The notes under the pieces were generated by a model. The model did no database searches. It had not been told where the DNA came from and saw only the letters and a list, made by a program, of their open reading frames with translations. A stretch of DNA of 18,971 nt from Planctomycetota bacterium (GTDB lineage: Bacteria; Planctomycetota; J058): assembly GCA_023954375.1 (NCBI GenBank), contig JAMLIC010000006.1:1-18971 (forward strand). Reading direction: 5' to 3'. How positions within the stretch are numbered: position 1 is the stretch's first letter; each line of letters begins with the position of its first letter. Both the position numbers and the translations under genes were made by a program. Positions 279 to 16,714 of the stretch are shown here, piece by piece.

Positions 279-1742
279 CTATGAGTGAAGCCGGAGGTAG
301 CGGTCGAGCGCCTGCGCCGCCGGCGGCGTGAGCCGCCCGAAGCGCACGCCGACCAGGTAGCGCCCGTCGTCCTCGCGGGAGACCGAGCGCACGTCGCCGT
401 CCGCCTCGACGACCACGTCCTCGAGCGCGAGCGACAGGCGCAGGCGGGCGCCGATGAGGAGCGGGTGATCGAGCTCCAGGCGCGCGCCGTCGTGCGAGAG
501 GTCGCGCGTCCGGCTGGCCGTCAGCTCGCGCGGCACCCCGAGCAGGTCGTCGTACTCGCCCACGTTGACCAGCGTCAGCGCCTGCACCCGCGGCTCGTGG
601 CGCCGCTCCTGCGGCGCCGCCGGCGGCCGGCGTCGCCGGGCCCCGCCCTGCCACCACGGGCGCTCGCGCGCCTCCGGCCGCGCGGCCCGCGCGAAGCGCT
701 GCGGGTCGCGCGCGTGGCGCGCGGCCTCCTCGGCCGTCACCTGCCCCGTCCGCACGAGCGCCTCGAGCGAGTCGTCGAGCAGGATCATCCCCTCGCCGGC
801 GACCTGGATCGCGCTGCGCAGCTCGTGCGTGCGCCCCCCCCGGATCAGCGCCGAGATCGCGGGCGACTGGAGCATCACCTCGCAGGCCGGGAGGCGGCCC
901 TTCCCGGTGCGCTCGTCGACGAGCACCTGGCTGACGACGGCGCGCAGCGACTGGGAGAGCATGGCCCTGGCCAGCGGGAGCTCGTCGCTCTCGAACAGGT
1001 CGAGGATCCGCTCCACGGTCTGGCCGGCGTCGTTGGCGTGCAGCGTGGCCAGCACCAGGACCCCCGTCTCGGCGGCCGTCAGGGCCGCGCGCACGGTCTC
1101 CAGGTCGCGCAGCTCGCCCACGAGGAGCACGTCCGGGTCCTCGTGCAGGCTGTCGATCACCCCCTGGTGGAAGGTCGGCACGTCCACGCCCACGGCGCGC
1201 TGCTGCACCAGCGAGCGCCCCGAGGCGTGCTGGTACTCGAGGGGGTCCTCGATGGTGATGATGTTCAACGCCTCGGCCTCGGCGAGCCGGCGCGTCAGCG
1301 CCGCGAGGGTGGAGGTCTTGCCGGTCCCCGTGGGGCCGGTCACGAGCACGAGCCCGGACCGGAGCTCGGCGAGTCGCACGACCACCGGGGGGAGGCGCAG
1401 CTCCTCGAGCGACGGCACGGCCCCGGCGAGCGGCCGGAGCGCGAGGGCGAGGCCCGTCCGCTGCCGGTAGGCGTGCCCGCGCCACCGCGCGCCGCCGCCG
1501 TCGACCACCGAGAACTCGAGGTAGCCCCGGGCGTCGAGGCGCGCCTGGCCGCCCTCCGGCAGGAGCCCGGCCAGGAGGCCCCGCAGGGCGCCGTCGTCGA
1601 GGGCGGCGCTCCCCTCGACCTCGATCAGCTCGCCCTGCAGGCGCATGCGCGGCCGCAGCCCTGCCTGGAGGTGCAGGTCCGAGCAGTGGAGCTCGAACGT
1701 GCGCTTCATCAGCCCGCCGAGCGTCGCTCCGAAGCTGGTCAT
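279..1742 (-). CDS. PilT-family (type IV pilus retraction-type, GspE/VirB11 superfamily) hexameric ATPase fused to a C-terminal PilZ domain.
   Basis: PilT core motifs: SDLHL, Walker A GPTGTGKTST, Asp box ITIEDPLEY, and His box TLHAND. The C-terminal ~110 aa carry canonical PilZ motifs RRHEPR (RRxxxR), then DLSHDG (DxSxxG) 30 aa later. The ATG lies 1 nt after the upstream gene's TGA. Confidence 0.85.
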   Translation of the reverse strand: MTSFGATLGGLMKRTFELHCSDLHLQAGLRPRMRLQGELIEVEGSAALDDGALRGLLAGLLPEGGQARLDARGYLEFSVVDGGGARWRGHAYRQRTGLALALRPLAGAVPSLEELRLPPVVVRLAELRSGLVLVTGPTGTGKTSTLAALTRRLAEAEALNIITIEDPLEYQHASGRSLVQQRAVGVDVPTFHQGVIDSLHEDPDVLLVGELRDLETVRAALTAAETGVLVLATLHANDAGQTVERILDLFESDELPLARAMLSQSLRAVVSQVLVDERTGKGRLPACEVMLQSPAISALIRGGRTHELRSAIQVAGEGMILLDDSLEALVRTGQVTAEEAARHARDPQRFARAARPEARERPWWQGGARRRRPPAAPQERRHEPRVQALTLVNVGEYDDLLGVPRELTASRTRDLSHDGARLELDHPLLIGARLRLSLALEDVVVEADGDVRSVSREDDGRYLVGVRFGRLTPPAAQALDRYLRLHS

Positions 1743-1743
1743 C

Positions 1744-3090
1744 TCACGCCTCCTCGCCGGCGCGCAGGACGCGCGCCGGGTCGAGCGCCAGGGGCAGCGC
1801 GTCGGCCGCGGCGACCTTGCCGGACCGCACCAGCCCCACGAGGGCGTCGTCGAGCATGCTCATCCCCTCCTTGCCCGAGGCCTGCATGACCCCCTGCAGC
1901 TGGTGCACCAGGTCCTCGCGGATCAGGCGGGCCACCGCGGGGGTCGCGACGAGCACCTCGGTCGCGAGGTGCTGACGGAGCCCGTCCGTGCCCGGGAGCA
2001 GGTGCTGGCTGACGACCAGCCGGAGCACGCTCGCGAGCATGCCGCGGACCATCGTCCGCTTGCGCCCCGTGTAGGCGTCGAGCACGCGCAGCACGCTCCG
2101 GTGCGCGCCGCTCGTGTGCAGGGTGCCGAGCACCAGGTGGCCCGTCTCGGCCGCAGTCAGGGCGGCCATGATCTGGTCGGGGGTGGCAAGCTCGGCCAGC
2201 ACGATCACGTCCGGGTTCTCCCGGACGACCGAGCGCAGCCCCTCGGTGTAGCTCGCGACGTGCGAGCCCACCTCGCGCTGGCTGATCAGGCAGGTGCGGC
2301 TCGGCAGCACGTACTCGATCGGCCGCTCGAGCGTGACCACGTGGCTGCGCCGGGTCTGGTTGAAGAGCTCGATGACGGCGGCCAGCGTCGTGGTCTTGCC
2401 GCTCCCGCGCGGGCCCGTGACCAGCACCAGCCCACGCTTCAGCCGGGGCACCTGCGTGAGGATCGGGGGGAGGGCCAGCCAGTCGTGCTCGGGGACCGCC
2501 TCGGGGATCCGCCGCACGGCCGCGCTCGGCCCGCGCGACTGCATGAACAGGCCCAGCCTGAAGCGCCCGATCCCCTCGCGCGGCAGGTGCACGAGCAGGC
2601 TCCGCTCGCGCTCGAGCTCGGCCCGCTGCTCCGCCGTGAGCGCCGACTCGATCAGCGCGCGGCAGCGCTCCGGCTCGAGCGGCCGCGGCGCGAGGCTGAC
2701 CAGCCGGCCGGCGATCCGGGCGTTGATGCGCGCCCCGGGCGTCAGGTGCAGGTCGGTGGCGCCGACCTCGACCTGGATGCGGAGGAGCTCGTCGAGGTCC
2801 GCCGCCTCGGCGCGCTCCGCCACCGCCTTGCGCGAGAAGTGCCCGCCCTCACCGCCGCCCTCGACCCGCCGCTGGCAGGCGAGCAGGCGCTCGAGGGAGG
2901 GCCGGGAGACGAGCCCCTCGTCGACCAGCAGGTCGCCCAGGAAGCGGGGCGGGTCCTGCGTGGCCTGGAGCTCGAGGCACCGCGCGACCTCCGCCTCCTC
3001 CACCAGGCCGTAGCGGACCGCGAGCTCACCCAGCTGCTTGCACCCGGGCGCCTCCCGGGGCTCCCGACCGACTTCCACTGCGCTCCCCAT
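1744..3090 (-). CDS. PilT-like ATPase with an N-terminal MshEN / T2SSE_N-type domain (putative c-di-GMP receptor).
   Basis: Walker A GPRGSGKTT, Asp box VTLERPIEY, His box TLHTSGA. The N-terminus has two tandem 24-residue motifs, QLGELAVRYGLVEEAEVARCLELQ and RFLGDLLVDEGLVSRPSLERLLACQ. These match the MshEN c-di-GMP-binding consensus RLGxxLLxxGLIxxxxLxxxLxxQ. Start chosen at the ATG at 3090, which has GGAGGTG 7 nt upstream. The ORF track extends to 3168 but that stretch lacks an SD. Confidence 0.8.
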   Translation of the reverse strand: MGSAVEVGREPREAPGCKQLGELAVRYGLVEEAEVARCLELQATQDPPRFLGDLLVDEGLVSRPSLERLLACQRRVEGGGEGGHFSRKAVAERAEAADLDELLRIQVEVGATDLHLTPGARINARIAGRLVSLAPRPLEPERCRALIESALTAEQRAELERERSLLVHLPREGIGRFRLGLFMQSRGPSAAVRRIPEAVPEHDWLALPPILTQVPRLKRGLVLVTGPRGSGKTTTLAAVIELFNQTRRSHVVTLERPIEYVLPSRTCLISQREVGSHVASYTEGLRSVVRENPDVIVLAELATPDQIMAALTAAETGHLVLGTLHTSGAHRSVLRVLDAYTGRKRTMVRGMLASVLRLVVSQHLLPGTDGLRQHLATEVLVATPAVARLIREDLVHQLQGVMQASGKEGMSMLDDALVGLVRSGKVAAADALPLALDPARVLRAGEEA

Positions 3091-3181
3091 CCTGCCACCT
3101 CCGCGATGTCGGCGGGGCTTCGCAAGCCGCGCGCCGCGCGCAACTGCAAGGCAGGCGAGGGGTGTCATCGGCGCGCGACGC

Positions 3182-3207
3182 CGCCGGTCGCGCGGCCGTG
3201 ACCGGCG
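3182..3207 (-). other. Stem-loop (8-bp stem CGCCGGTC / GACCGGCG, 10-nt loop) immediately 3' of the WD40 stop codon, inside the 117-nt spacer before the PilT-MshEN gene.
   Basis: Inverted repeat read directly. Its position between co-directional genes suggests an intra-operon attenuator, stability element or terminator. Confidence 0.3.
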
Positions 3208-4716
3208 TCAGTCAGGCAGCACGTGGCGGCGGACCGCGCCGGTCCGCGCGCCGGCGAGCAGCGACCGGCCGTCGGGCGCGAAGGCGACGGCGAGCTGCAC
3301 GGCGGGAGACGGCCACTCCGCCACGCGCTCGCCGTCGAGGCGCGTCAGGCGCACACCATCGGTGTGGGCCGTCGCGACGAGGGCTCCGTCGGGCGAGAGG
3401 GCCATCGCGTAGATGCCGCGCTCGTGCACGCGCAGCGGGGCGCCGACCTCCTGGCCCGTGGCGACGTCGAAGCGGCGGACGTGGCCGTCATCGCACGCCG
3501 TGAGCAGGGAGGTGCCGTCGGGCGTGAAGGCCAGGTCCTGCACGGCGTCCAGGTGGGGCGCGGTCCAGCGCGCCGCCCCGCTGGCGAGGTCATGGAGCAC
3601 CGCCCGCTGGTCGGAGCCCCCGGTGGCGCAGAGGGCCCCGTCGGGCGAGAGGGCCAGGGCGCCGACCTTCCGCTCGTGGCCCGCGACCTCGAGCAGGGGC
3701 CGGTCGCCGCCTGGCGTCCCGGGCCACACGCGCAGGGCGCCGTCGTACCCGGCGCTGACCAGGCGCCCGTCGGGGAGGGCGCGCAAGGCGGTGACGCCGC
3801 CCTCGTGCGCCGGCCAGCTCCCGCGCGCCTCGCCCGTGGCGACGTCCCAGGCGGCGATCACGCCCGCGAGGTCGCCCGCCCACAGGCGCGCGCCGTCGGG
3901 GCTGAAGGCCAGGGCCAACGGGTCGATCGGCGCCCGGCGCATGACGTGGAGGGGGTCGCCCGAGGCCGCGTCGCGCAGCGTCAGGTGGCCCGTGCGCGCG
4001 GCGAACGCCACGCGCGCCCCGTCCGGCGCGAAGACGATCGCGCGCACGATGCACGGCTCGGCGGAGAAGCGCCGCCCGGTCCGCGCCCGCCGGGCGGCCA
4101 CCGGGTCACCCAGGTCGAGGACCCACGGCGCCAGGTCGTCACGGATGACGACGCGCACCTGCGCGGGGGCGTGGGCGAGCAGCCCGCGCTCGAGGCCGTC
4201 CCGCAGGAGCGTCGCCGCGTTCTCCGGCTCGCGAGCGACGGCGCACGCCATCAGGACCTGCTCGCCCGCCGCGACGGCCCCCCAGCCCTCTGCCATCGTC
4301 GCCGCCGCGGCCTCGCGCAGCGCCTCGAGCGCCACCCGGCGGCTCGCGGCCGGCGCGAGCAACGCGCCGTCGAGCGCGTCGAGCAGGCGGACGACGAGGT
4401 CGTCGGGGCCGTCGAAGCGCTCCCAGCGCACGGGCGCGGCGTGGGCGGCCGCGGCCGCCGTGCGCAGGCAGGCCTCGGGGCCGAGCGCGACCGCGGCGCG
4501 AATCACGGCCTCGACCCAGGCGCTCGGCTGGGCCTGCGCGGGCTCGACGCCGGCCACGGCGCAGGCCGCCCGGTGCCCCAGGGCCACGGCGAGGTCGAGC
4601 GCGAGGGGGTCGAGGAGGCCCAGGCGGGCCCGCTCGCCCAGGAGGCGCGCCGCGGCGGCGTCGCCCGGCTGCTCGCGCCAGGCGCGCTCGGCGGCGCGCA
4701 GCCGCTCGTCGCTCAC
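3208..4716 (-). CDS. WD40 beta-propeller protein: an N-terminal ~230-aa Ala/Leu-rich helical domain plus ~7 WD-like repeats.
   Basis: The C-terminal half has repeated [AS]-x-D-G-x-x-[LV] ... W-D blades (FSPDGARLWAGDLAGVIAAWDV, LSPDGALCATGGSD, FTPDGTSLLTACDDGHVRRFDV, LSPDGALVATAHTDG, FAPDGRSLLAGA). GTG start at 4716 is preceded by GGAGGG. It overlaps the upstream gene's stop as GTGA. The longer ORF-track start (5124) runs antisense through the upstream gene and is rejected. Confidence 0.8.
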   Translation of the reverse strand: MSDERLRAAERAWREQPGDAAAARLLGERARLGLLDPLALDLAVALGHRAACAVAGVEPAQAQPSAWVEAVIRAAVALGPEACLRTAAAAAHAAPVRWERFDGPDDLVVRLLDALDGALLAPAASRRVALEALREAAAATMAEGWGAVAAGEQVLMACAVAREPENAATLLRDGLERGLLAHAPAQVRVVIRDDLAPWVLDLGDPVAARRARTGRRFSAEPCIVRAIVFAPDGARVAFAARTGHLTLRDAASGDPLHVMRRAPIDPLALAFSPDGARLWAGDLAGVIAAWDVATGEARGSWPAHEGGVTALRALPDGRLVSAGYDGALRVWPGTPGGDRPLLEVAGHERKVGALALSPDGALCATGGSDQRAVLHDLASGAARWTAPHLDAVQDLAFTPDGTSLLTACDDGHVRRFDVATGQEVGAPLRVHERGIYAMALSPDGALVATAHTDGVRLTRLDGERVAEWPSPAVQLAVAFAPDGRSLLAGARTGAVRRHVLPD

Positions 4717-6002
4717 GGGCCCTCCGGATAGAGCAGCGCCCGCGCCCGGGCGCGGGCGAACGCCGCCAGGGCCGGGTCGGCCCGCCAGCGGGCGACGATC
4801 GCCGCCGGGTCGTCGCCGCGCTCGAGCGCCTCCAGCACCCACCGCGCGCCGATCAGGCCGCGCAGGCGGTCGACCCGGTAGCGGTCCGGGTGCAGGCGCA
4901 GGAGCGCGTCGAGCAGGTGCAGACCTGCCTCGACGGGCCGCAGGGCGCGCCGGTCCGTCACGACGACGCGCACGCCCCGGCAGACCTGCTCGGCGAACGG
5001 GTAGGCGACGTTCTCGCGCCCGGTCACGTCGCGGCGCGACGGGACGAACGTCGTGGCCGAGAACCATAGCCCCGGGAGGGCGCGGGCCTCGAGGGCCGCG
5101 GCCAGCCCCTCGCCGTCGACCCACGGCGCGCCGACGTACTCGAACGGCCGGTCGGTCCCGCGGCCGACGGAGAGGTCGTGGTTGGCCTCCGTGAGCGCCA
5201 CCATGGGGTAGAGGAGCGCCTCGTCGACCGAGCGCAGGTTGGGCGAGGGGTTCACCCAGGGCAGGCCGGTCTCGTCCTGGAGCAGGCCGCGCCGCCAGCC
5301 CTCGCAGGCGATCACCTGCAGGTCGGCGGCGAGGTCGTCGTTCATGAGCCGCGCCACCTCACCCACCGTCATCCCGTGGGTCACGGGCATGGGCCAGAAC
5401 GAGGTGAAGCGGCCGACGAGGTCCGGGTCCTGCAGCGGGCCGTCGAACCCGTGGCCGCCGGTCGGGTTCGGACGGTCGAGGACGACCACGCGCAGGCCGC
5501 GGCGGGCGGCCTCCTCGAGGAGCAGGCCGAGCGTCGAGATGTAGGTGTAGAAGCGAGCGCCGACGTCCTGGATGTCGAACACCAGCGTGTCGAGCCCCTC
5601 GAGCATCGCGTCGGTCGGGCGGCGCGTCTGCCCGTAGAGGCTGTGGACCGGCAGGCCGGTGCGCGCATCGACGCCCGAGGCCACCGGCGCGTCCTGGTCC
5701 CCGCGCAGCCCGTGCTCGGGCGAGAGGAGAGCCGCGAGCGTGACCCCCGGCGCGGCGACCAGGAGGTCGATCGCGTGCCGGCCCTGGCGGTCGATCGCCG
5801 TGTGGTTGACGACGAGGCCGACGCGCCGGCCGCGCAGGGGGGCGCAGCCGTCGCGGACGAGGACGTCGAGGCCGGTGAGCACGACCGTCGAGACGGGCGC
5901 GACCGGCCCCGCGTCCGGACCCGACGTGGGCGGGGCCGGCGCGGGCGGCGGGGCGGCGCAGCCGAGCGCGAGCAGGAGCAGGGCGAGCGGGGCGCGGCTC
6001 AC
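4713..6002 (-). CDS. namZ: DUF1343-family lipoprotein (NamZ-like exo-beta-N-acetylmuramidase family).
   Basis: Signal peptide with lipobox LALGC. Motifs I associate with DUF1343/YbbC/NamZ: GRRVGLVVNHTAIDRQGRH, LLSPEHGLRG, LDRPNPTGG. GTG start with GGAGGA upstream. Family assignment is from memory of motifs, not a search. Confidence 0.65.
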   Translation of the reverse strand: MSRAPLALLLLALGCAAPPPAPAPPTSGPDAGPVAPVSTVVLTGLDVLVRDGCAPLRGRRVGLVVNHTAIDRQGRHAIDLLVAAPGVTLAALLSPEHGLRGDQDAPVASGVDARTGLPVHSLYGQTRRPTDAMLEGLDTLVFDIQDVGARFYTYISTLGLLLEEAARRGLRVVVLDRPNPTGGHGFDGPLQDPDLVGRFTSFWPMPVTHGMTVGEVARLMNDDLAADLQVIACEGWRRGLLQDETGLPWVNPSPNLRSVDEALLYPMVALTEANHDLSVGRGTDRPFEYVGAPWVDGEGLAAALEARALPGLWFSATTFVPSRRDVTGRENVAYPFAEQVCRGVRVVVTDRRALRPVEAGLHLLDALLRLHPDRYRVDRLRGLIGARWVLEALERGDDPAAIVARWRADPALAAFARARARALLYPEGP

Positions 6003-6072
6003 GGGGGCCAGTCCTCCAGCGCCTCGCGCGCCCGCTCGCCCCCGGCCAGGGCGGCGGCCCCGAGGGCGCAGG

Positions 6073-6864
6073 TCACAGGCGCCCGGCGCGCCGCAGCTCC
6101 TCGTCCTGCGCCCGCGTCCGCCGGTAGTAGGCGGTCATCGTCAGGAGGCTCGCCGCCGGCGGGTCGAGGTAGGCGGTCACGCGCCGGTGGAGCTGCAGCG
6201 CGCTGGCGGGGAAGAAGCTCGACACCGGCCCCTCGACCATGCCGCGCACGGCCTGCGCCTTCTTGGGGCCGATCGCCTGGAGCAGGACCTCGCGCGCGTC
6301 GAGGATCGTGCCGATGCCCATGGTCACGGCGAGCACCGGCGGCCGCTCGCCCGGGCCATAGAAGCGGGCGTTGTCCTCGAGCGTGCGCTCGGTCAGCGTC
6401 TTGACGCGCGTGCGCGACGCCAGCGACGACGTGGGCTCGTTGAAGCCGATGTGCCCGTTGCGCCCGATCCCCAGCAGCTGCACGTCGATCCCGCCGCACG
6501 CCGCGATCCGCGCCTCGTACTCCTCGCAGCGGCGCAGGAGGTCCTTGCCGTCGGCGGGCGGGAAGTGGACGTTCTCCGGCGGCAGGTCGAGCCCCTCGAA
6601 CAGGTGCTCGCGCATGAACGTGCGGTAGCTCTGCGGGTGCTCCGCCGGCAGGTCCAGGTACTCGTCGAGGTTGAACGTGCGCACGCGCGCGAAGCTCACC
6701 TCGCCGCGCGCGTGCGCCTCGCGCAGGCGGCGGTAGACGCCGACCGGGGTCGAGCCCGTGGCCAGCCCGAGCACGAGGTCGGGCTTGGCCTTCAGGCGCG
6801 CGACGATGACGTCGGCGACCTGCGCGGCCGCGTCCTCGGCGTCGCGTGCGAGCACGATCTCCAC
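6073..6864 (-). CDS. nagB: Glucosamine-6-phosphate deaminase.
   Basis: Classic NagB signatures GLATGSTP and GIGRNGHIGFNEP. Length 263 aa. GTG start with GAGGAGGA 6 nt upstream. Confidence 0.9.
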   Translation of the reverse strand: MEIVLARDAEDAAAQVADVIVARLKAKPDLVLGLATGSTPVGVYRRLREAHARGEVSFARVRTFNLDEYLDLPAEHPQSYRTFMREHLFEGLDLPPENVHFPPADGKDLLRRCEEYEARIAACGGIDVQLLGIGRNGHIGFNEPTSSLASRTRVKTLTERTLEDNARFYGPGERPPVLAVTMGIGTILDAREVLLQAIGPKKAQAVRGMVEGPVSSFFPASALQLHRRVTAYLDPPAASLLTMTAYYRRTRAQDEELRRAGRL

Positions 6865-8256: not shown

Positions 8257-9576
8257 CTACAGGCCGTCGAGCGCCCCGCGGCTGTCCCCGAAGCTGGTCG
8301 CGCGCGCGCCCGCCCGCTGGAGGATCGACACGTAGAGGTTGCACAGCGGCGTCTCGGGCGCGAGGCGCAGGTGCCTCCCGCCGTGCACCGAGCCGCCGCC
8401 GCGCCCGCAGAGGAGGACCGGCAGGTCGTGGTGGTCGTGGCGGTCGCCGTCGCGGATCGCGCTGCCGAAGACGACCAGCGTGTTGTCGAGGAGCGTGCCC
8501 CGGCCCTCATCGACGGCCGCGAGCTGCTCGAGGAGGTAGGCGAGCTGCTCCACCTGGAAGCGGTTGATCCGCTGCAGCTTCGCCTGGCGCTCCGCATCGC
8601 CGCCGTGGTGCGACAGGTCGTGGTGCCCCTCCGGCACGCCGAGGAAGCGGTAGCTCCGGTTGCTGCCCGCGTTGGCCGTCATGAACGTCGCCACGCGCGT
8701 CGTGTCGGTCTGGAAGGCCAGGCGCACGATGTCGTACATGCGGCGGATGTGCTCGCCGTAGTCGCCCGCCGCGCCGGTCGGCGGGGCGACCGGCGGCCCC
8801 TCGCTCCGGCGGCGCTGCGGCTTGCCCAGGCGCTTCTCGAGCGCGCGCACCGCCTCCATGTACTCCTCGAGCTTGCGCCGGTCCGCCGCGCCCAGGCGCG
8901 CCCGGACGCGCTTGGCGTCATCGAGGACGAGGTCGAGGACGGAGGCGCGCTGGCGGTCGCGCCGCGCGCGCTGGTCGGGCGTGAGCCCCTCGCCGTCGAG
9001 GAACAGCCGCTCGAACACGGCCCGCGGGTCGATCTCCTTGGCCACCGGCGTCGTCGGCCCGCTCCAGGCGATGTTCGACGAGTAGGCGCAGCTGTAGCCG
9101 GAGTCGCAGTTGCCCCCCTGCGCGCTCGGGTCGCAGCCGAGCTCGAGCGAGGGGAGCGGCGTCGCCTGGCCGACCGCCTGGGCGAGGACCTGGTCGACGG
9201 AGACGCCGTTGTGGATGTCGGCGCCGTCGGTCTTGCGCGGGTGCGCGCCGGTGAGGAACGCCGCGCCGGCCCGCGCGTGGTCGCCCGGCCCGTCGCCGTG
9301 CGCGCGCGCCCCGTCGAGGGTCAGCCCGGAGAGGACCGTGAGGTGCCGCCGGAAGGGCGCGAGCGGCTCGAGCGTGGGCGGCAGGGCGAAGTCGGCGCCG
9401 ATGCGCTCGGGCGTCCAGGCCGACATGTGCACGCCGTTGGGGAGGAACACGAACAGCGCCCGCACGGGCGGCCGGTCGGCGGCGCGGGCCGCGGGCAGGA
9501 GCGACTCGAGCAGCGGCAGGCCGAGCGTGGCCCCCGCCGCCCCGCGCAGGAACGTCCGCCGCGTGCACCTGCTCAC
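8257..9576 (-). CDS. DUF1552-family protein (Tat-signal periplasmic protein, the usual partner of PSCyt/PSD-type DUF1592 proteins).
   Basis: Twin-arginine signal SRCTRRTFLRGAAGATLGLPLLE is typical of DUF1552 N-termini. GTG start overlaps the upstream stop as GTGA at 9573-9576. Family assignment from recognised N-terminal architecture and gene pairing. Confidence 0.65.
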   Translation of the reverse strand: MSRCTRRTFLRGAAGATLGLPLLESLLPAARAADRPPVRALFVFLPNGVHMSAWTPERIGADFALPPTLEPLAPFRRHLTVLSGLTLDGARAHGDGPGDHARAGAAFLTGAHPRKTDGADIHNGVSVDQVLAQAVGQATPLPSLELGCDPSAQGGNCDSGYSCAYSSNIAWSGPTTPVAKEIDPRAVFERLFLDGEGLTPDQRARRDRQRASVLDLVLDDAKRVRARLGAADRRKLEEYMEAVRALEKRLGKPQRRRSEGPPVAPPTGAAGDYGEHIRRMYDIVRLAFQTDTTRVATFMTANAGSNRSYRFLGVPEGHHDLSHHGGDAERQAKLQRINRFQVEQLAYLLEQLAAVDEGRGTLLDNTLVVFGSAIRDGDRHDHHDLPVLLCGRGGGSVHGGRHLRLAPETPLCNLYVSILQRAGARATSFGDSRGALDGL

Positions 9577-11918
9577 CGGGCCCCCTTCGCCGCGCGCCGC
9601 TTCTGGAACGCGTCGAGGCGCGTCACGCCCACGACGAGGTCCGCCAGGCCCGGGTCCGGCCCGAGCGCCTCGAGCAGCGCGTCGAGCGCGCCCTCGTCGG
9701 CGGCCACGGGCCCGCGGCCGAGCCCGAAGACCATGAGCTTCTTCGCCAGGGCGCGCGCGAGGTCGCGCGAGCGGCCGCGCAGGTAGCCGCGGAGCCCGTC
9801 GACGCCCATGAAGGTCAGCCCGCCGGGGAGGACGCCCGCGTCGTCGATCGGCAGCCCCTCGTCCTGCTCGCGCCACGCGCCCACCGCGTCGAAGCGCTCG
9901 AGCCCGAAGCCGAGCGGGTCGAGCCGCGCGTGGCAGCCGGCGCAGGCGGGGTCGGCCCGGTGCCGCTCGAGGCGCGCGCGCAGCGTCTTGCCGGTGGCGG
10001 GCCCGTCCTCCTTCAGGCTGTCCATCCCGGGCAAGGGCGGCGGGGGCGGGTCGTCGAGCAGCACCTCGAGCACCCAGCGCCCGCGCTTCACGGGCGACGT
10101 GCGCGTCGGGTTCGAGGTGGCCGTGAGCACGCTCGCGTGGCCGAGGAGCCCCCGGCGGACGGGCGGCGCGTCGACGCGCACGAAGTCGGGCCCGCGCACG
10201 CCCCGGATGCCGTAGTGCCGGGCCAGGCGCTCGTTGACGAACGTGTACGGCGCGTCGAGGAGCTCGCTCACCGGGCGGTTGCCGCGCAGGACCGCCTCGA
10301 ACAGGCGCGCGCTCTCCTCCTTCATCGCCGCCCGCAGCGGCTCGTCGAAGCCGGGGAAGCTCGCCGGGTCCGGCGCGGCCGTGTCGAGGCGCCGGAGCTG
10401 GAGCCACTGGGTGGCGAACTGCTGCACGAAGCGGCCCGCCTTCGGGTCGGCCAGGAGCCGGCGCGCCTGGGCCTCGAGCTGGTCGCGGAGCCCCCCCGCC
10501 TGGGCCGCGCGCAGGAGCTCCTCGTCGGGCAGGCTCACGTGCAGGTAGTAGGAGAGGCGCGTGGCGAGCTCGTGGTCGGCCAGCGGCTGCGCGCCGGGGT
10601 GCGGCGGCTCGCCCGGCCGCGGGCGCGCGGCGTCGAGCTCGAAGCGGAAGAGGAAGTGCGGCGAGCAGAGGACCGCCGTCAGCGCGAGCTGCATGGCCCG
10701 CTCGAAGCTCTCGCCGTCGGCCATCGCCTGGTCGACGTGCCTGGCGTAGCGCTCGAGCTCGTCCGACTTCGCCGGCCGGCGGAAGGCCCGGGTGACGAGC
10801 GGGCCCAGGACCTCCCGGGCGACGGCGCGCCGCTGCACGGGGCGCGCGTTGTCGGCCGGCCGCTTCGTCAGGTAGGTGCGGTGCGCCCAGGGCAGCGGCG
10901 GCGCCTCGACCGGCCCCTCGAGCTCGACCCAGGCGACCGCGAGGTTACGGTCGCGCTGCGAAGGGTCGGCGGCGCCCGGGTCGTAGAAGTCGTTGACGAA
11001 GGCCGCCGCGAGGTCGTGGTCGCCGGCGCGCAGGCGGGTCCGCGCCTCGTAGACGCCCGGGTCGTCGACGGTCGCGCGCACGTCGAAGGTCTCGAGCGCG
11101 CGGCCGTCCACCCGGAGCGCCATCCGCGCCGGGTCGGGGCCCGCCTGCATGCCGTAGGCGCGCGCCCGGACGACGTACTCGCCCTCGTACGGCGCGCGCA
11201 CGCGGACCACGTAGGCGCCGTTCGACCAGAGCGTGCCGAAGCCGTCGCGGAAGTTGCCGTCGGAGCCCTCGCGCCGGGCCGACTCGACCGACACCCGCTC
11301 GCGCACCGGCTTGAAGTCGAGGAACGCGGCCCGGGCCACCGCCTCGCCGGCCGCGAGGTACTTCTCCAGCAGGAGCGGCGGGATCGACAGGACGTCGCCG
11401 ATCGTGTCGAAGCCGTAGCCGACGTCGTCGTCGGGGAAGGTCCGGGCCGGGGCCAGCTCGACGCGCAGCATGTCCTGGACGGTGAAGTCGTACTCGGCCC
11501 GGTTGAGCCGCCGCAGCGTCACACGCCCGGGGTCGAACGGCCCGGCCGGGGCGGCGGCGCCGCCGAGGGCGCCCCGCACCCAGGCGATCACCGCCTTGAC
11601 CTCCTCGGCCGACGGGCGCGGGCGGTCCTCGGGCGGCATGTCGCCAGCGTGCAGGCGCTCGAGGACGCCCGTCCAGGCCTTCCGCTCGCGGAGGACGGCC
11701 GCGCGGTCGGCGAAGCCGTCGAGCGCCAGGTCCCCCTCGCGCTCGCCGCGCCCGTGGCACTCGAAGCAGTGGCGCCGGAGGAAGGGGAGCACGACGCGGG
11801 CGAAGCCCGCCTCGTCACCGGCGGCGGGGTCGGCCTCGGCCGCCGCCGGGCGGGGCCACAGGGGCAGGGCCGCGGCGAGCGCGGCCAGGGGCACGAGGAG
11901 CAGGGCGCGGCGCGGCAT
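9573..11918 (-). CDS. Secreted multi-domain DUF1592/DUF1595/DUF1587/DUF1588-type (Planctomycete PSCyt/PSD-like) protein with an N-terminal c-type haem-binding motif.
   Basis: Signal peptide MPRRALLLVPLAALAAALPLWPRPAAA, then CFECHG (CxxCH) ~40 aa later. Large ~780-aa body. Paired with and translationally coupled to the DUF1552 gene downstream, the canonical arrangement for this family. Confidence 0.6.
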   Translation of the reverse strand: MPRRALLLVPLAALAAALPLWPRPAAAEADPAAGDEAGFARVVLPFLRRHCFECHGRGEREGDLALDGFADRAAVLRERKAWTGVLERLHAGDMPPEDRPRPSAEEVKAVIAWVRGALGGAAAPAGPFDPGRVTLRRLNRAEYDFTVQDMLRVELAPARTFPDDDVGYGFDTIGDVLSIPPLLLEKYLAAGEAVARAAFLDFKPVRERVSVESARREGSDGNFRDGFGTLWSNGAYVVRVRAPYEGEYVVRARAYGMQAGPDPARMALRVDGRALETFDVRATVDDPGVYEARTRLRAGDHDLAAAFVNDFYDPGAADPSQRDRNLAVAWVELEGPVEAPPLPWAHRTYLTKRPADNARPVQRRAVAREVLGPLVTRAFRRPAKSDELERYARHVDQAMADGESFERAMQLALTAVLCSPHFLFRFELDAARPRPGEPPHPGAQPLADHELATRLSYYLHVSLPDEELLRAAQAGGLRDQLEAQARRLLADPKAGRFVQQFATQWLQLRRLDTAAPDPASFPGFDEPLRAAMKEESARLFEAVLRGNRPVSELLDAPYTFVNERLARHYGIRGVRGPDFVRVDAPPVRRGLLGHASVLTATSNPTRTSPVKRGRWVLEVLLDDPPPPPLPGMDSLKEDGPATGKTLRARLERHRADPACAGCHARLDPLGFGLERFDAVGAWREQDEGLPIDDAGVLPGGLTFMGVDGLRGYLRGRSRDLARALAKKLMVFGLGRGPVAADEGALDALLEALGPDPGLADLVVGVTRLDAFQKRRAAKGAR

Positions 11919-11982: not shown

Positions 11983-12966
11983 CTACTCCCGCCCGGGCCC
12001 GAGCAGGTCGACGGCGAGCGTGCCGACGCCGTGCCCGTCCGACCAGTTGCCCAGGTGACCCCAGAGGAAGACGCCGCGCCGGAGCTCGTCGGAGAGGGGG
12101 GCCAGGGCCGCCTCGGACCAGGCGCGCGCAAGAGAGAGGAGCGGGCGCCCGTCCTGGTGGACCTTGAGGCCCCAGCCGGCGACGTCGACCCGCAGGTCGA
12201 GCACGAGGGGCTCGGCCGGCCGCGGGCGGAGCTCGAAGCGCTCGAGCACCTCCACGCCGGGCGTGCGCGGCTGCCCGGGGGGCGGGTCGTGCACCAGGTC
12301 GGCCCCGGGGGGCTTGTCGCGGTTGACGACGCGCACGAGCCCCAGCACCCGCCCGTCGCGCCGCACCTGGAGCGTGACCCACCACGCGCCCGGCTCGAGC
12401 TGCCGCGCGGCCTCGATCGGATGGCCCGCGGCCCGCACGCCGAGCTCGTAGAAGAAGCCGGCGGCCTCGCGGAACCCGTGGCCCCGCTCCCAGTCGGCCA
12501 GGCCGGAGGCGTCGCGGGCGACCTCGGCGGCGCAGGTCCAGCGCACGGCGAGCGGCAGGGCGCGGCGCTCCCGGTCGAAGAGGCCGGCGCGCTCCCAGTC
12601 GCTCGTCGGGCGGGGGCGCGAGGTGTAGACGCCGTCCTCGCCCCGGGCGAGGCCGTCCGCCGGGGGCTGCACGTCGAAGGTCAGGCGCGTGGCCCCCCGC
12701 GACCGCCCGGCGGGCTCGGACGCCGCCGGCTCGGGCGTCACCGGCTCGGGCGCGGGCCCGGGCGCTGCCGGCCCGGGCGCCGCCGGCCCGGGCGTCGCCG
12801 GCCCGGCCTCGTCGGCCGACGCCGGCCTGGCGTCGCGTGGCGCCTCCGGCGTCGCCGCGGCCGCTGCCGGCCCGGCCTGGGGCGGCGCCGGCGACGTCCC
12901 CGCCGACGGGCCGCGGCCGACGCGCAGCGCGGCGACGGCCGCGACCGCCGCCACCACGAGCACGGC
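11983..12966 (-). CDS. TM helix + Pro/Ala-rich linker + ~250-aa extracytoplasmic domain. Almost certainly the C-terminal part of the Ser/Thr kinase gene, read in the -1 frame.
   Basis: Frame with near-100% GC3 encodes AVLVVAAVAAVAAL (a TM helix), then PGPAAPGPAAPGPAPEPVTPEP, then a structured domain ending at a TAG at 11983-11985. Upstream of ~12970 this frame becomes Arg/Gly-rich nonsense. The true 5' boundary of this segment is approximate. Confidence 0.55.
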   Translation of the reverse strand, partial: AVLVVAAVAAVAALRVGRGPSAGTSPAPPQAGPAAAAATPEAPRDARPASADEAGPATPGPAAPGPAAPGPAPEPVTPEPAASEPAGRSRGATRLTFDVQPPADGLARGEDGVYTSRPRPTSDWERAGLFDRERRALPLAVRWTCAAEVARDASGLADWERGHGFREAAGFFYELGVRAAGHPIEAARQLEPGAWWVTLQVRRDGRVLGLVRVVNRDKPPGADLVHDPPPGQPRTPGVEVLERFELRPRPAEPLVLDLRVDVAGWGLKVHQDGRPLLSLARAWSEAALAPLSDELRRGVFLWGHLGNWSDGHGVGTLAVDLLGPGRE

Positions 12967-14075
12967 CGCGGCCGCGCCCGCCCGGGGGCGGCGCCCGCCT
13001 GACCGGAGGTGCGCGCGACCGGCGCGGGCGCGCGCAGCGCCTCCTCGATCGCCGCGAGGAGGGCGCCCGGACCGGGATGGCGGCGGGCCGCCTCGGGCTC
13101 CATCGCGCGCTGCACGAGCGCCACGGCGCGCTCGGAGAGCCCGGGGCGACGCCGCGCGAGGTCGCCCGGGGCGCCCCGGCTGCGCAGCGGCGGCGCGCCG
13201 GTGAGGAGCGCGTAGAGCGTGGCGCCGAGGCCGTAGACGTCGACGCGCGCGTCGAGGTCGGGGGCCCCCGCGATCTGCTCCGGCGCCATGAAGGCCAGCG
13301 TGCCCACGGCCACGCCGGTGAGGGTCAGCCGGTCCGCGCCGGTCTGGCTGCGCGCCAGCCCCAGGTCGCCCAGCTTGGCCCGCCCCCCGGGGGTGAGGAA
13401 CAGGTTCGTCGGCTTCACGTCGCGATGGACGAGGCCGGCCGCCTCCAGCGCCGCGAGGCCCAGCGCGGCGTCGCGCGCCAGCTCCAGCGCGCGGCGCTCG
13501 GGCAACGCGCCGCCCGCCCGGGCCAGGAGGCCCTGCGCGTCCCCGCCGGTCATCAGCTCCATGGCGATGTAGGGCTGCCCGTCGAGCTCCCCCGCGGAGT
13601 AGCAGGTGATCACGTGCGGGTCGTTCACGGCGGCCAGCACGCGCGCCTCGCGCAGGAAGCGCCGCCGCGCCCCGGGGTCGGCCGCGAGGGCGGGGGCGAG
13701 GAGCTTCACGGCCACGTCGCGCGCGAGCGCGCGCTCGCGGGCCCGGAAGACGCGCCCCATCCCCCCCTGCCCGAGCGGGGCCAGGAGGTCGAACCCGCCG
13801 AGCGTCCGCGGGAGGCCCTCCGGCGCGGGCCCCGCGCCGGTCGTCGCCGGCGGCGCGGTCGCGCCGGCGCGGACCTCGCGCAGCAGGTCGGCCAGCAGCG
13901 CCTCCGGCACGTCCAGCCAGAACGCGAAGAGGCCGGCGCTCAGGTCCCCCTCGTCCGGGCGGCCGGCGAGCGCCTCGCGCGCGTGGGCCACCGCCTCGGG
14001 CGGCGCGAGGTCGCGGGCCTGGAGGCGGCGCAGCGCCTCCTCCCACTCGGCCCGGGCGCCGACGAGGGCGCTCAC
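12738..14075 (-). CDS. Hanks-type Ser/Thr protein kinase: ~95-aa N-terminal extension plus catalytic domain. The frame decays into an Arg-rich tail after a C5 homopolymer, consistent with a frameshift or sequencing indel.
   Basis: Gly loop LGQGGMGRVF, VAVK (catalytic Lys), HRDVKPTNLFL, DLGLAR, GTLAFMAPE. GTG start at 14075 overlaps the ECF sigma stop as GTGA. After ...AIEEALRAPAPVARTSGQAGAAP the frame gives RPRPCSWWRRSRPS... with reduced GC3. Confidence 0.75.
   Translation of the reverse strand: MSALVGARAEWEEALRRLQARDLAPPEAVAHAREALAGRPDEGDLSAGLFAFWLDVPEALLADLLREVRAGATAPPATTGAGPAPEGLPRTLGGFDLLAPLGQGGMGRVFRARERALARDVAVKLLAPALAADPGARRRFLREARVLAAVNDPHVITCYSAGELDGQPYIAMELMTGGDAQGLLARAGGALPERRALELARDAALGLAALEAAGLVHRDVKPTNLFLTPGGRAKLGDLGLARSQTGADRLTLTGVAVGTLAFMAPEQIAGAPDLDARVDVYGLGATLYALLTGAPPLRSRGAPGDLARRRPGLSERAVALVQRAMEPEAARRHPGPGALLAAIEEALRAPAPVARTSGQAGAAPGRARPRPCSWWRRSRPSPRCASAAARRRGRRRRRPRPGRQRPRRRRRRHATPGRRRPTRPGRRRPGRRRPGRQRPGPRPSR
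12755..12810 (-). repeat. About 3.5 tandem copies of a 15-bp unit (CCGGGCGNNGCCGGC) encoding (PGPAA)n in the kinase's extracytoplasmic linker.
   Basis: Direct tandem repeat visible on the plus strand (gctgccggcccgggc / gccgccggcccgggc / gtcgccggcccggcc). In-frame, so copy number could vary without breaking the ORF. Confidence 0.5.
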
Positions 14076-14821
14076 CGCCCGGCCTCGCGCGACAGGCGCA
14101 GCACCGCGTCGCGCTCCTGCGCCAGCGCCTCGGGGCGCGCCTCGAGCCAGCGCAGCCGGCGCTCCACCTCGTCCGCCAGCGCCTGACGCAGCCGCGTGGC
14201 CCGGACGTAGAGGGCGTTGCGCGTCAGGCCGAGCGCCGCGGCGACCTCGTCCGCGCCGGGGCGCACGGGGGCGAGCACCCACTCGCCGAGGAGGCGCTGG
14301 CCCGCCTCGTCCCCCTCCTGGCGCAGGCGCTCCTCGAGGGCGGCCACGGCGCGCCCCCACAGGCACTGGGCCCAGTCGCGCTCGAACGACGCCTCGGGGT
14401 CGGCGGCCGCGGGCTCGCCGGCCCCCCGGCCCAGCGCCGCCTCTGCGAGGACCTCCGCCGCCCCGTGCCCCTCGAGCCAGCCCGGCCGCTCACCGTCCGG
14501 CCGGGCCCGCTCGCGGCGCCACGCCTTGCGCCGGTGGTTGGCGAGGCAGCTCAGGAGGTAGGTGCGCAGGCGGCCGCGCCCGGCGTCCCAGGCGCCGAGG
14601 AGCCGGCCGTCCAGCCCGGCGACGAAGAAGTCCTGCAGCACGTCCAGCGCCTCCTGCGAGGCGCTCCCCGTGCGGCGCAGGTAAGCGTAGAGCGGCGGCC
14701 AGTACTCGCGGAAGAAGCGCTCCCAGGCCGCGCGCCAGCCCGGGGAGCCGGGGTTCGCGGCCTCCGCCACGAGCGAGGCGCTCGTGCGCGGGAAGCCGGC
14801 GTGCCGCGACTCGGGGTTCAC
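14072..14821 (-). CDS. ECF (extracytoplasmic function) sigma-70 family factor with N- and C-terminal extensions.
   Basis: Sigma region-2-like WERFFREYWPPLYAYLRRTG...ALDVLQDFFV and region-4 HTH-like GLTRNALYVRATRLRQAL. GTG start at 14821 is uncertain; the upstream sequence is low-GC and non-coding-like. The ORF-track N-terminus (to 15265) is antisense to the plus-strand lipoprotein gene and is rejected. Confidence 0.75.
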   Translation of the reverse strand: MNPESRHAGFPRTSASLVAEAANPGSPGWRAAWERFFREYWPPLYAYLRRTGSASQEALDVLQDFFVAGLDGRLLGAWDAGRGRLRTYLLSCLANHRRKAWRRERARPDGERPGWLEGHGAAEVLAEAALGRGAGEPAAADPEASFERDWAQCLWGRAVAALEERLRQEGDEAGQRLLGEWVLAPVRPGADEVAAALGLTRNALYVRATRLRQALADEVERRLRWLEARPEALAQERDAVLRLSREAGR

Positions 14822-14900
14822 ACGGAAGAGTTTACAGCTCGGGCCGCGAACCACGAAAGATCTCGCCGCCCACCGGATACCCAGGGCGAAGGAGGTCCCC
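14822..14900. promoter_or_regulatory. 79-bp divergent intergenic spacer between the ECF sigma gene (minus) and a lipoprotein gene (plus). Contains TTTACA (14831-14836) and the SD AAGGAGG (14887-14893) for the lipoprotein gene.
   Basis: Noticeably lower GC than the flanks. Near-consensus -35-like hexamer and a strong SD 7 nt before the ATG at 14901, read directly. No convincing -10 found. Confidence 0.4.
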
Positions 14901-15914
14901 ATGCACCGCGTCTCGCACGGCCTGATCGGCGTCGTCTTCTTCGGCCTCGTGGCCCTGGGCTGCGGCGACTCGAGCGGCTCGTCGCCGCTGCCGGGCGGCG
15001 CGCCGCCCCAGGTCCCGTCGTCGTTCGAGCCGTCGCCGCCGGCCCCGCCGGAGCCGCCGCCGCCGGCCCCGCCGTCGCCGCCGCCCGCGCCCCCGCCAGC
15101 CCCGCCCGCCGACGACCTGGCGCCCTCGAGCGACGACTTCTCGGACCCCGCCCGCCTCGGCGAGTGGCAGCGGATCCACCTGGTGGAGCAGTGGGGGTTC
15201 GACCAGGTCGAGGCGCTCGACGTGGGGACGACCCGCGCCGGGTGGCTGACGATGGTCCCCCACACCAGCTCCTGGTACGAGGACTACCGCGGCGAGCTCA
15301 TGTTCAAGGAGGTCGACGGCGACGTCGTGGTCACGACCCGCGTCCTGGCCACGAACCGGGCCGGGACGGGGGCCCCGAGCAGGTCCTACTCCCTGGCCGG
15401 GCTCATGGTCCGGGCGCCCCGCAACGTGACCCCGGCCACGTGGCAGCCGGGCGGCGAGAACTACGTGTTCCTGTCGATCGGCGCGGCCAACGCGCCGGGG
15501 CTCGCCCAGACCGAGGTCAAGACCACCGAGGGCAGCGTCTCCACGCTGACGATCGAGCAGGCCGCCGGCCTCGAGGCCCGCATCCGCGTCGCGCGCGTCG
15601 GGGCGGCGGTGATCACCCTCATCCGCGAGGAGGGGACGCCCTGGCGCGTCCACCGGCGCTTCGCCCGGCCCGACCTGCCCTCGACCCTGCAGGTGGGGCT
15701 GACCGTCTACACGGACTGGGAGACGGTGCAGACCTTCACGCCCCAGGAGCACAACACGACGCTCATCACCACGGGGACCCCCGACCTGCGCGCGCAGTTC
15801 GACTTCGTCACCTTCGCCAGGCCCGCCGTCCCCGCCGCCCTCGTCGGCCGGGACCTCGTCGACGCCGCCGACGTCTCCGACGCGGAGCTCCTGGCGTTCC
15901 TGGGCGACGACTGA
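14901..15914 (+). CDS. Hypothetical lipoprotein: signal peptide with lipobox LVALGC, a long Pro-rich linker, and a ~260-aa C-terminal domain predicted to be beta-rich.
   Basis: ATG with AAGGAGG SD. MHRVSHGLIGVVFFGLVALGCGDSSG. (PAPPxPPP)n linker. The domain has alternating hydrophobic beta-strand-like segments (YVFLSIG, VITLIRE, LQVGLTVYTDWE, FDFVTFARP). Family not recognised. Confidence 0.7.
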   Translation: MHRVSHGLIGVVFFGLVALGCGDSSGSSPLPGGAPPQVPSSFEPSPPAPPEPPPPAPPSPPPAPPPAPPADDLAPSSDDFSDPARLGEWQRIHLVEQWGFDQVEALDVGTTRAGWLTMVPHTSSWYEDYRGELMFKEVDGDVVVTTRVLATNRAGTGAPSRSYSLAGLMVRAPRNVTPATWQPGGENYVFLSIGAANAPGLAQTEVKTTEGSVSTLTIEQAAGLEARIRVARVGAAVITLIREEGTPWRVHRRFARPDLPSTLQVGLTVYTDWETVQTFTPQEHNTTLITTGTPDLRAQFDFVTFARPAVPAALVGRDLVDAADVSDAELLAFLGDD

Positions 15915-16710: not shown

Positions 16711-16714
16711 CCCC

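Follow-up and report, generated by a model that had tools for sequence, protein, structure and literature searches.

A conserved pair of PilT-family ATPases in Planctomycetota might be a c-di-GMP-gated retraction-type motor with a pseudo-ATPase adaptor

What would two adjacent genes for PilT-family ATPases do, if each ATPase also carries a different receptor-type module for cyclic di-GMP (c-di-GMP)? This question is raised by positions 1 to 18,971 of contig JAMLIC010000006.1 (assembly GCA_023954375.1), from a bacterium of the Planctomycetota. We refer to this entire stretch of 18,971 nucleotides (nt) as the window. A first-pass annotation of the window viewed the two ATPase genes and a neighboring gene for a WD40 protein as a three-gene unit. 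Instead, we found that the two ATPase genes form a conserved unit by themselves. Our leading interpretation, which we hold with middling confidence, is that this two-gene operon encodes a c-di-GMP-gated two-component motor of the retraction type, with a pseudo-ATPase as the adaptor.

Because the window is about 77% guanine plus cytosine (G+C), it has long open reading frames (ORFs) in all six frames. We called genes by profiling the G+C content of third codon positions (GC3) in each frame, along with a listing of ORFs. The locus has five genes, all on the minus strand (as are all of the coordinates that we give within it): nagB, namZ, the WD40 gene, and the two ATPase genes. The first ATPase gene (1744..3090) encodes a protein of 448 amino acids, with a pair of MshEN_N motifs, a linker, and a PilT-family ATPase. 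We will call this protein the partner. Its ATG is at 3090 and is preceded by a conserved GGAGGTGG. The second ATPase gene (279..1742, with its ATG at 1742) encodes PilT-PilZ, which has 487 amino acids: a PilT-family core, a flexible linker, and a C-terminal PilZ domain. At the junction between the two genes (1743..1746), the TGA of the partner (1746-1744) is followed by one base and then by the ATG of PilT-PilZ, and the Shine-Dalgarno sequence for PilT-PilZ (GAGGAGG) sits within the 3' end of the partner gene. The GC3 profile and the ORF listing confirmed the first-pass description of three co-directional genes (WD40, partner, and PilT-PilZ) with spacings of 117 nt and 1 nt.

To see how the pair is arranged elsewhere, we examined the genomic context of homologues of PilT-PilZ, from 90% down to 49% identity. 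The partner is directly upstream of PilT-PilZ in 9 of 9 lineages (the window's clade, L001, L009/10, L013, L002/L016, L004/5, L017, L018, and the metagenome-assembled genome, or MAG, ACE_PLA31), and the order of the two genes is always the same. Depending on the lineage, the junction is a 1-nt gap, a 9-nt gap, or a 4-nt overlap.

The simplest explanation for such a pair would be a tandem duplication that left two ordinary and independent PilT paralogues, each of which forms its own homohexamer and would serve pili by itself, perhaps in different conditions, with the accessory domains as add-on regulators. Many PilT paralogues have partial phenotypes or none, and there are four of them each in Geobacter sulfurreducens and Myxococcus xanthus (PMC5065972; PMC13584747). 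Also, PilT and PilU have each been reported to form homohexamers. However, the two ATPases in the window are only 38% identical to each other, yet the order and the tight coupling of their genes are kept down to 46-49% identity between lineages. This bears out the earlier view of two divergent PilT paralogs, each with a c-di-GMP-receptor-type module, and extends it to a conserved and tightly coupled unit. We return to the independent paralogues below, once the catalytic residues have been described.

The PilZ-bearing form of the pair is rare. When we scanned 185,579 species (one genome each) with a profile of the C terminus of PilT plus PilZ, we found full-length PilT-PilZ in just 4 of them (three Planctomycetota and one unclassified), which is a lower bound because the scan relies on patterns of peptides. 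We also used HMMER to search 1.84 billion representative proteins (clustered at 50% identity) exhaustively, and this yielded six full-length members. As for the host, the first-pass annotation had suggested Myxococcota. This was mistaken, because the closest relatives are MAGs from Planctomycetota (GCA_019636275.1 and others) and because the window holds the planctomycete gene pair of PSCyt/PSD and DUF1552. We found no description of a fusion of PilT to PilZ, or of a PilT that bears MshEN_N, in the literature that we searched, which included a survey of PilZ. So the first-pass remark that the unit was not known to have been described seems right for the ATPase pair.

We consider PilT-PilZ first. 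It matches Pfam's T2SSE (E = 1.3e-38) and PilZ (E = 3e-12), as the first-pass annotation had anticipated. Across the whole protein, it scores 347.1 bits against TIGR01420 (PilT/PilU), and the partner scores 339.7 bits; both pass NCBIfam's curated cutoff of 319.1 bits. The nearest solved structure is PilT from Pseudomonas aeruginosa (3JVU, E = 3e-72). The AlphaFold 2 model of PilT-PilZ (mean predicted local distance difference test, or pLDDT, of 86.8) has a confident PilT core, a disordered linker, and a beta-rich domain that ends in a helix. The ATPase core comprises amino acids 1-354 (681..1742). The flexible linker (amino acids 355-382, 597..680) is rich in arginine and proline, has a pLDDT below 50 at residues 355-363 and 365-382, and varies in both length and sequence among lineages.

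The PilZ domain (amino acids 379-483, 294..608) scores 47.2 bits against PF07238, as compared to a cutoff of 22.5 bits, and is modeled as beta strands (a tethered beta-barrel) with a C-terminal helix. It has both of the ligand motifs of PilZ: RRHEPR (RxxxR; amino acids 380-385, 588-605) and DLSHDG (DxSxxG; amino acids 414-419, 486-503). All 13 of the 13 members share the residues of these motifs (R133/R134/R138 and D167/S169/G172 of alignment A1). In YcgR-type brakes and in the PilZ-FimX-PilB complex, a PilZ is likewise placed to pass the status of c-di-GMP to a motility ATPase or motor. In those systems, though, PilZ is a separate protein, and the PilZ of Xanthomonas or Pseudomonas does not itself bind c-di-GMP; in contrast, the window's protein has a canonical PilZ that is covalently fused to the C terminus of a retraction-type ATPase. 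Four other proteins of 430-470 amino acids (P0248, P0256, P0262, and P0333) have a C-terminal PilZ that is closely related to the one in PilT-PilZ proteins (E of about 1e-26 to 1e-32); their N-terminal regions of about 320 amino acids do not match any family in Pfam.

For the partner, too, P. aeruginosa PilT is the nearest solved structure (3JVU, E = 7.7e-75). Orthologues of the partner have 433-454 amino acids. The first-pass annotation had proposed a pair of MshEN motifs at the N terminus of the partner. Indeed, amino acids 19-73 (2872..3036) contain two 24-residue motifs, separated by a 7-residue spacer, in an MshEN_N-type module of four helices. The key residues of each motif are R1, L2, G3, L17, L21, and Q24 (Wang et al. 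2016). The first motif (QLGELAVRYGLVEEAEVARCLELQ, 2965-3036) has 4 of the 6 key residues (Q1 and V17 deviate), and the second motif (FLGDLLVDEGLVSRPSLERLLACQ, 2872-2943) has 5 of the 6 (F1 deviates). If the published relaxed pattern is used, then position 1 is the sole mismatch in each motif. More broadly, the arginine at position 1 is missing in most of the 16 partners that we aligned. The spacer (ATQDPPR) has 7 residues, not 5 as in the definition of MshEN_N; Geobacter PilB aligns across this spacer without any gaps.

Profile searches gave a mixed picture of this module. Pfam's MshEN (PF05157) does not match the 448-residue partner even at E ≤ 10, because this model describes the MshEN_C/N1 part, and the partner has no such part. 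Where PilB-like proteins are encoded next to the pair in related loci, their matches to PF05157 fall on the later N1/MshEN_C part, and Wang et al. reported that the Pfam model of that time missed MshEN_N (PMC5013675). NCBIfam has a 53-residue model, NF053729, with a cutoff of 38 bits. The window's partner scores 36.9 bits (E = 2e-9), and its orthologues score 34.3, 45.5, 39.2, 44.4, 37.3, and 59.4 bits, so 4 of the 7 members pass. A profile of the N terminus of the partner family matches Geobacter PilB (E = 4e-11), Thermus PilF (E = 7e-14), and Vibrio MshE (5HTL, E = 1.7e-9).

The predicted structure of the MshEN_N module is a four-helix bundle (AlphaFold 2, pLDDT of 91.3). When we compared it to the Protein Data Bank with Foldseek, the best match was MshE with c-di-GMP (5HTL; template modeling score of 0.79, root-mean-square deviation of 1.9 Å), and the next was the GSPII-B domain of PilF, bound to c-di-GMP (8PFA; 0.77 and 1.1 Å). 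The E-values for these matches are weak because the model is short. The isolated 53-residue MshEN_N subdomain of Vibrio MshE suffices for binding c-di-GMP (PMC5013675). The proposed motif pair is supported as MshEN_N-type by the family profile and by the predicted fold, while the Pfam family is absent and the NCBIfam score falls just short. The extension ATPases MshE, PilB, and PilF have a homologous N-terminal module, with 53 residues, two motifs, and four helices. Unlike them, the partner has a PilT-type ATPase (about 350 core residues), lacks N1/MshEN_C, and lacks the arginine that stacks on guanine. A recent review describes the N-terminal GSPII domain as separating extension ATPases from retraction ATPases.

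Are both ATPases likely to be active? We aligned each family (15 PilT-PilZ proteins and 16 partners) to the numbering of P. aeruginosa PilT. In the PilT-PilZ family, K136, E159, D160, E163, G203, E204, R206, and H229 are invariant (15 of 15). H222 is never histidine in this family (it is I, V, A, or L), and E177 is mostly replaced by alanine. In the partner family, D160 is aspartate in 0 of 16 proteins (arginine in 10, glutamine in 4, and glutamate in 2), and R206 is arginine in 0 of 16. Other residues of the partners vary: E204 is glutamate in 13 and aspartate in 3; H229 is histidine in 12, glutamine in 2, and proline in 2; and K136 is lysine in 15 and arginine in 1. E204 is the catalytic glutamate of PilT, and H229 coordinates the gamma-phosphate (bioRxiv 10.1101/672212). 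For comparison, there is essentially no variation at D160, R206, E204, or H229 among 372 other PilT domains (22 single-domain PilTs and 350 halves of tandem fusions); in particular, D160 and R206 are kept in all 22 of the single-domain PilTs and in nearly all of the 350 halves.

The two proteins of the window follow these family patterns. PilT-PilZ has a Walker A motif (GPTGTGKTS, 1311-1337), a canonical Asp box (E-D-P-x-E; TIEDPLEY, 1233-1256), a canonical Walker B motif (G-E-x-R-D; LLVGELRD, 1104-1127), and a His box with valine in place of the first histidine (AAETGVLVLATLHA, 1035-1076). The partner's catalytic motifs (1915..2415) include Walker A (GPRGSGKTT, 2389-2415) and a His box (AAETGHLVLGTLHT, 2113-2154), but neither its Asp box nor its Walker B is canonical: the Asp box has arginine in place of aspartate (TLERPIEY, 2311-2334), and Walker B has lost both the arginine and the aspartate (IVLAELAT, 2182-2205). 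The lysine of Walker A, E204, and H229 are kept in both proteins, as is an AIRNLIRE-like motif (AISALIRG at 837-860 in PilT-PilZ and AVARLIRE at 1915-1938 in the partner).

PilT-PilZ looks like a working ATPase, because all of the residues that are known to be involved in binding or hydrolyzing ATP are kept, while those of the partner are lost or variable. The partner looks like a subunit in which the catalytic constraints have been relaxed. We interpret it as a putative adaptor, weakly active or inactive, because the aspartate of the Asp box and the arginine of Walker B are lost in all members of its family.

This asymmetry also bears on the idea that the two proteins are independent paralogues. 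The window's partner does retain K136, E204, and H229, as might be expected of an independent motor. On the other hand, the losses are reciprocal and family-wide (D160 and R206 in the partners, H222 and E177 in PilT-PilZ), and some partners have lost H229 or have E204D or K136R, which does not fit well with a motor that works by itself. Also, a fusion of the ancestral type of the pair exists (see below). Overall, we think that two independent motors are unlikely.

Relatives of the pair suggest how it arose. The closest relative of the core of PilT-PilZ that lacks PilZ is P0098, which is 50% identical and has methionine instead of H222. The P0098 gene is preceded, after a 1-nt gap, by a gene for an MshEN_N-PilT of 434 amino acids (locus L100), which is 44% identical to the window's partner in a gap-free alignment. 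This protein has the same pair of MshEN_N motifs, yet its Asp-box and Walker-B residues are canonical. L095 is a second pair of MshEN_N-PilT and plain PilT. Furthermore, P0006 (818 amino acids) is a single-chain fusion of this type of pair, in the same order. Its N-terminal half is 57% identical to P0106, and its C-terminal half shares 66% identity with the second PilT of L095. Like the window's pair, these relatives have the same order, the coupling, MshEN_N on the first gene, and a hydrophobic residue at H222 in the second. Unlike the window's pair, the first gene is canonical in its Asp box and Walker B, and the second lacks PilZ. Because L100, L095, and P0006 share the order and MshEN_N with the window but have a canonical first gene and no PilZ, the sequences indicate that the window's family is a derived branch of this broader class, in which the first gene degenerated and the second gained PilZ.

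In M. xanthus, MXAN_6705 (which has a long N terminus) and MXAN_6706 are adjacent PilT paralogues that are conserved in Myxococcales, and deleting MXAN_6706 leads to a partial defect in S-motility (PMC13584747). The N terminus of MXAN_6705 was described as disordered (PMC13584747), and MXAN_6705 is not listed among the MshEN_N proteins in the supplement of Wang et al. MXAN_6705/6706 may belong to the class of MshEN_N-PilT plus PilT, but we set them beside it by their description, as a lead only.

Another family with two PilT domains turned up in our searches. Tandem PilT-PilT proteins of about 730 amino acids are widespread (175 among the matches; P0009, P0015, P0071, P0124, P0140, and others). 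Their hosts are Polyangiales (including Chondromyces crocatus, WP_156338647.1), Bradymonadia, Eremiobacterota, Armatimonadota, and MAGs of Alphaproteobacteria. Like the pair, such a protein places two PilT-family domains in one unit; unlike the pair, both halves are canonical, and there is no PilZ and no MshEN_N. We considered these fusions as a "Rosetta stone" for the pair and rejected them: both proteins of the window match the C-terminal half better in 171 of 175 cases, so the tandem proteins are not collinear orthologues of the pair.

How might the pair work? We infer that the pair binds c-di-GMP, that the partner has lost activity, that the two proteins associate, and that they act on a pilus. 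We propose that the two genes are translationally coupled and that their products would act together as one c-di-GMP-responsive motor. PilT-PilZ would be the catalytic subunit that hydrolyzes ATP, with its PilZ receptor on a flexible tether of about 28 residues. The partner would be a weakly active or inactive subunit that serves as an adaptor or regulator, and its MshEN_N would provide a second, possibly weaker, site for c-di-GMP. The two proteins probably associate, either in a mixed ring or in stacked rings as proposed for PilT/PilU. Binding of c-di-GMP to PilZ, and perhaps to MshEN_N as well, would switch the retraction-type activity or its recruitment. The target would be a type IV pilus-like machine that is encoded elsewhere in the genome, and the PilB-like, extension-type ATPase of this machine might be the one that is encoded beside the pair in half of the lineages.

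The best-known precedent is PilT/PilU (in P. aeruginosa, in Vibrio cholerae, and, as MXAN_5787/MXAN_1995, in M. xanthus). These are likewise two adjacent PilT-family genes, the second with a C-terminal extension, and one member may be catalytically dead and yet couple the other to the machine: a catalytically inactive PilT still supports retraction that is driven by PilU (PMC11656802; PMC12607626). PilT/PilU differ from the window's pair in that they have no c-di-GMP receptor domains. Also, in the window's pair, evolution has fixed the degeneracy of the first gene, and a PilZ domain makes up the C-terminal extension. Neither ATPase of the window is closer to PilU than to PilT: PilU (9N32) scores 222.3 and 205.6 bits against the two proteins, as compared to 255.8 and 247.3 bits for PilT (3JVU).

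A more specific version of this proposal is that the two proteins form an obligate mixed ring (for example, three alternating with three) or a fixed double ring, which reads c-di-GMP through two types of receptors with different affinities. We give this version little credence. If it were true, then the pair would be the first heteromeric motor of the type IV pilus type, as well as the first retraction-type ATPase to be gated directly by c-di-GMP.

Because a pilus is the proposed target, the neighborhood of the pair matters. The first-pass annotation stated that there were no pilus genes nearby. This is correct for the rest of the window and for the 10 kb downstream in the closest MAG, where we found no pilus genes. 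But in 4 of 8 lineages, the pair adjoins a gene for a PilB-like ATPase (699-781 amino acids) with MshEN and T2SSE (L002, 11605-15302; L004, 6566-8665; L013, 6182-8527, minus strand; and L018, 1602-5362). In its N-terminal region, the PilB-like protein of L004 has a GAF domain and that of L013 has a PCMT methyltransferase domain, whereas those of L002 and L018 have no recognized domain there. In both L002 and L018, the PilB-like gene is preceded by an AAA gene, and in L018, the genes for AAA, the PilB-like protein, the partner, and PilT-PilZ are consecutive, and all four of these ATPase genes overlap.

These neighbors could point to a role that does not involve a pilus. The pair, alongside the PilB-like ATPase (and an AAA+ ATPase in certain lineages), might drive or regulate another process: it might take part in a system like type II secretion, in a novel kind of envelope transport, or in a c-di-GMP-dependent complex for regulation or sequestration. 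The overlapping genes in L018, the atypical N-terminal domains (GAF or PCMT) of the PilB-like proteins, and the lack of genes for pilin, PilC, or the alignment complex near the pair in the loci we examined are all compatible with this idea. However, PilT is the nearest solved ATPase to both proteins (PilU, DotB, PilB, and GspE all score below it), and both proteins not only pass the PilT/PilU cutoff but also score far above the models of DotB, TraJ, and GspE. Furthermore, it is usual for the genes of PilT paralogues to be away from the structural genes of the pilus (PMC5065972; PMC13584747). A link to pili is also favored by the AIRNLIRE-like motif of both proteins and by the PilB-like neighbor in half of the lineages. 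We therefore doubt that the role lies outside of pili, and we continue to favor a c-di-GMP-gated motor of the retraction type.

Several observations weigh against that proposal. The first arginine, which stacks on guanine, is absent from both motifs of the partner (which have Q and F instead), and the window's partner is 1 bit under the cutoff of NF053729. Because of these two features of its sequence, the second c-di-GMP site (MshEN_N) may be dead. The window's partner itself keeps K136, E204, H222, and H229, and the view of it as a pseudo-ATPase rests on D160R and R206A/D207T. We did not find any documentation of how changes of this type affect PilT (bioRxiv 10.1101/672212 does not mention them). 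P0006 is the only fusion protein that backs the association of the two proteins, because the tandem PilT-PilT fusions are not collinear with the pair. None of the loci that we examined has genes for pilin, PilC, or PilMNOPQ close to the pair. And every carrier is an uncultured MAG or a metagenome contig.

We now turn to the WD40 gene (3208..4716, with a GTG start), which encodes 502 amino acids. As the first-pass annotation reported, the protein has a WD40 propeller (Pfam WD40, E = 2.3e-29); this lies in the C-terminal 300 or so residues, and the N-terminal 200 or so amino acids are helical. The proposed scenario was that the propeller is the scaffold of a three-component c-di-GMP-gated motor, together with MshEN-PilT and PilT-PilZ. 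In support of this, both the window and its relatives with 88-91% identity (L006-8 and L014/15) have the three genes side by side and in the same direction. However, these are the only relatives with the WD40 gene upstream of the pair: there is no WD40 gene beside it in seven other lineages that carry the pair. Also, the GTG of the WD40 gene (4716-4714) overlaps the TGA of namZ (4715-4713) by 4 nt (GTGA), and the WD40 gene is 117 nt from the ATPase genes. So of the three genes that were described as translationally linked, the two ATPase genes are 1 nt apart, while the WD40 gene is translationally coupled to namZ instead. Finally, the genes for full-length orthologues of the WD40 protein (53% and 50% identity) have namZ immediately upstream, overlapping it by 4 nt or separated from it by 10 nt, and the next gene downstream encodes peptidase M1 or UbiB rather than a PilT. 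We conclude that two independent modules, each of them conserved, lie next to each other in the window (nagB-namZ-WD40 and the ATPase pair), because the orthologues of the WD40 gene follow namZ without PilT and the pair persists without WD40. The synteny of the three genes is not conserved, which the first-pass annotation had itself named as grounds for refutation, and we consider a three-component motor with a WD40 scaffold to be very improbable.

A different WD40 gene lies in L013 (3816-6101, minus strand), directly downstream of the PilB-like gene, which is divergent from the pair. It encodes a protein of 761 amino acids with 14 WD40 repeats. Its location could be taken as support for a three-component motor, but the protein has another architecture and matches the window's WD40 protein only via the generic similarity of the repeats. 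We judge that the presence of this second WD40 gene is compatible with chance in Planctomycetota.

The intergenic spacer that separates the WD40 gene from the two ATPase genes (3091..3207, 117 nt) was said to contain a hairpin. There is an 8-bp GC stem right after the stop codon of the WD40 gene (3182-3207), but its stability is no better than that of shuffled sequence (z = -0.45). The spacer is 92% identical in close relatives, so its conservation is not informative. No consensus for a promoter or a terminator was found in the spacer, nor was any Rfam family (including the c-di-GMP riboswitches). Given the z-score and the lack of such a consensus or family, we rejected the hairpin as a regulatory element.

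The annotations of the genes further upstream as namZ and nagB were sound. NamZ, an exo-beta-N-acetylmuramidase (4713..6002), matches Pfam's NamZ_N (E = 1e-73) and NamZ_C (E = 2.7e-37). NagB, a glucosamine-6-phosphate deaminase (6073..6864), scores 275.5 bits against TIGR00502, as compared to a cutoff of 236.9 bits. The module of nagB, a variable gene, namZ, and WD40 (3208..6864 in the window; also L006, L014, L096/L097, and L098) is conserved in Planctomycetota. The variable gene encodes an unknown protein of 357-362 amino acids or, in L096, a protein kinase of 308 amino acids, and it is missing from the window. Because the WD40 gene overlaps or abuts the stop codon of namZ in lineages down to 50% identity, we suggest that the WD40 protein is a possible propeller partner for the exo-N-acetylmuramidase NamZ.

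Other genes near the pair are less easily related to it. Genes for Ser/Thr kinases recur near the pair (in 3 lineages), which we judge to be compatible with chance in Planctomycetota. In L018, a protein of 841 amino acids is encoded downstream of the pair (9274-11796); it has an MshEN_N-like start (LLTREQLGEAIRTAREQGVSLESVISEAG) and contains DUF4013. At 14784..15914, the window has a gene for a protein of 376 amino acids that does not belong to a family, and L004 has a homologue of this gene immediately downstream of its pair. The remainder of the window (8257..11900, 12738..14030, and 14072..14770 on the minus strand and 15997..18566 on the plus strand) encodes the DUF1552 and PSCyt/PSD pair, a Ser/Thr kinase, an extracytoplasmic function (ECF)-type sigma factor, DUF4198, and CbiM/CbiQ for the transport of cobalt or nickel. 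Positions 1 to about 70 have runs of C or G and then GCCTCG-like repeats, which looks like an artefact of sequencing or assembly at the end of the contig. We also considered defense against phages, but we rejected this because the matches from PADLOC were only local similarities to P-loops or repeats.

So far, direct control of pilus dynamics by c-di-GMP has been documented for extension ATPases (MshE, PilB, and PilF) and for separate adaptors. The pair places both of the widespread dedicated receptor modules for c-di-GMP on ATPases of the retraction type. It also fixes by evolution the state of a "dead PilT plus active partner," which has been made by mutation in the PilT/PilU of Vibrio and Pseudomonas. 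Because all of the carriers of the PilZ form are uncultured, work on these proteins would need heterologous expression. If our proposal is correct, then the pair would be a natural system for understanding how two rings or subunits of the PilT family cooperate, and it would draw attention to an MshEN_N module that has been overlooked in the conserved but unexplained pairs of PilT paralogues from Myxococcota and other phyla.

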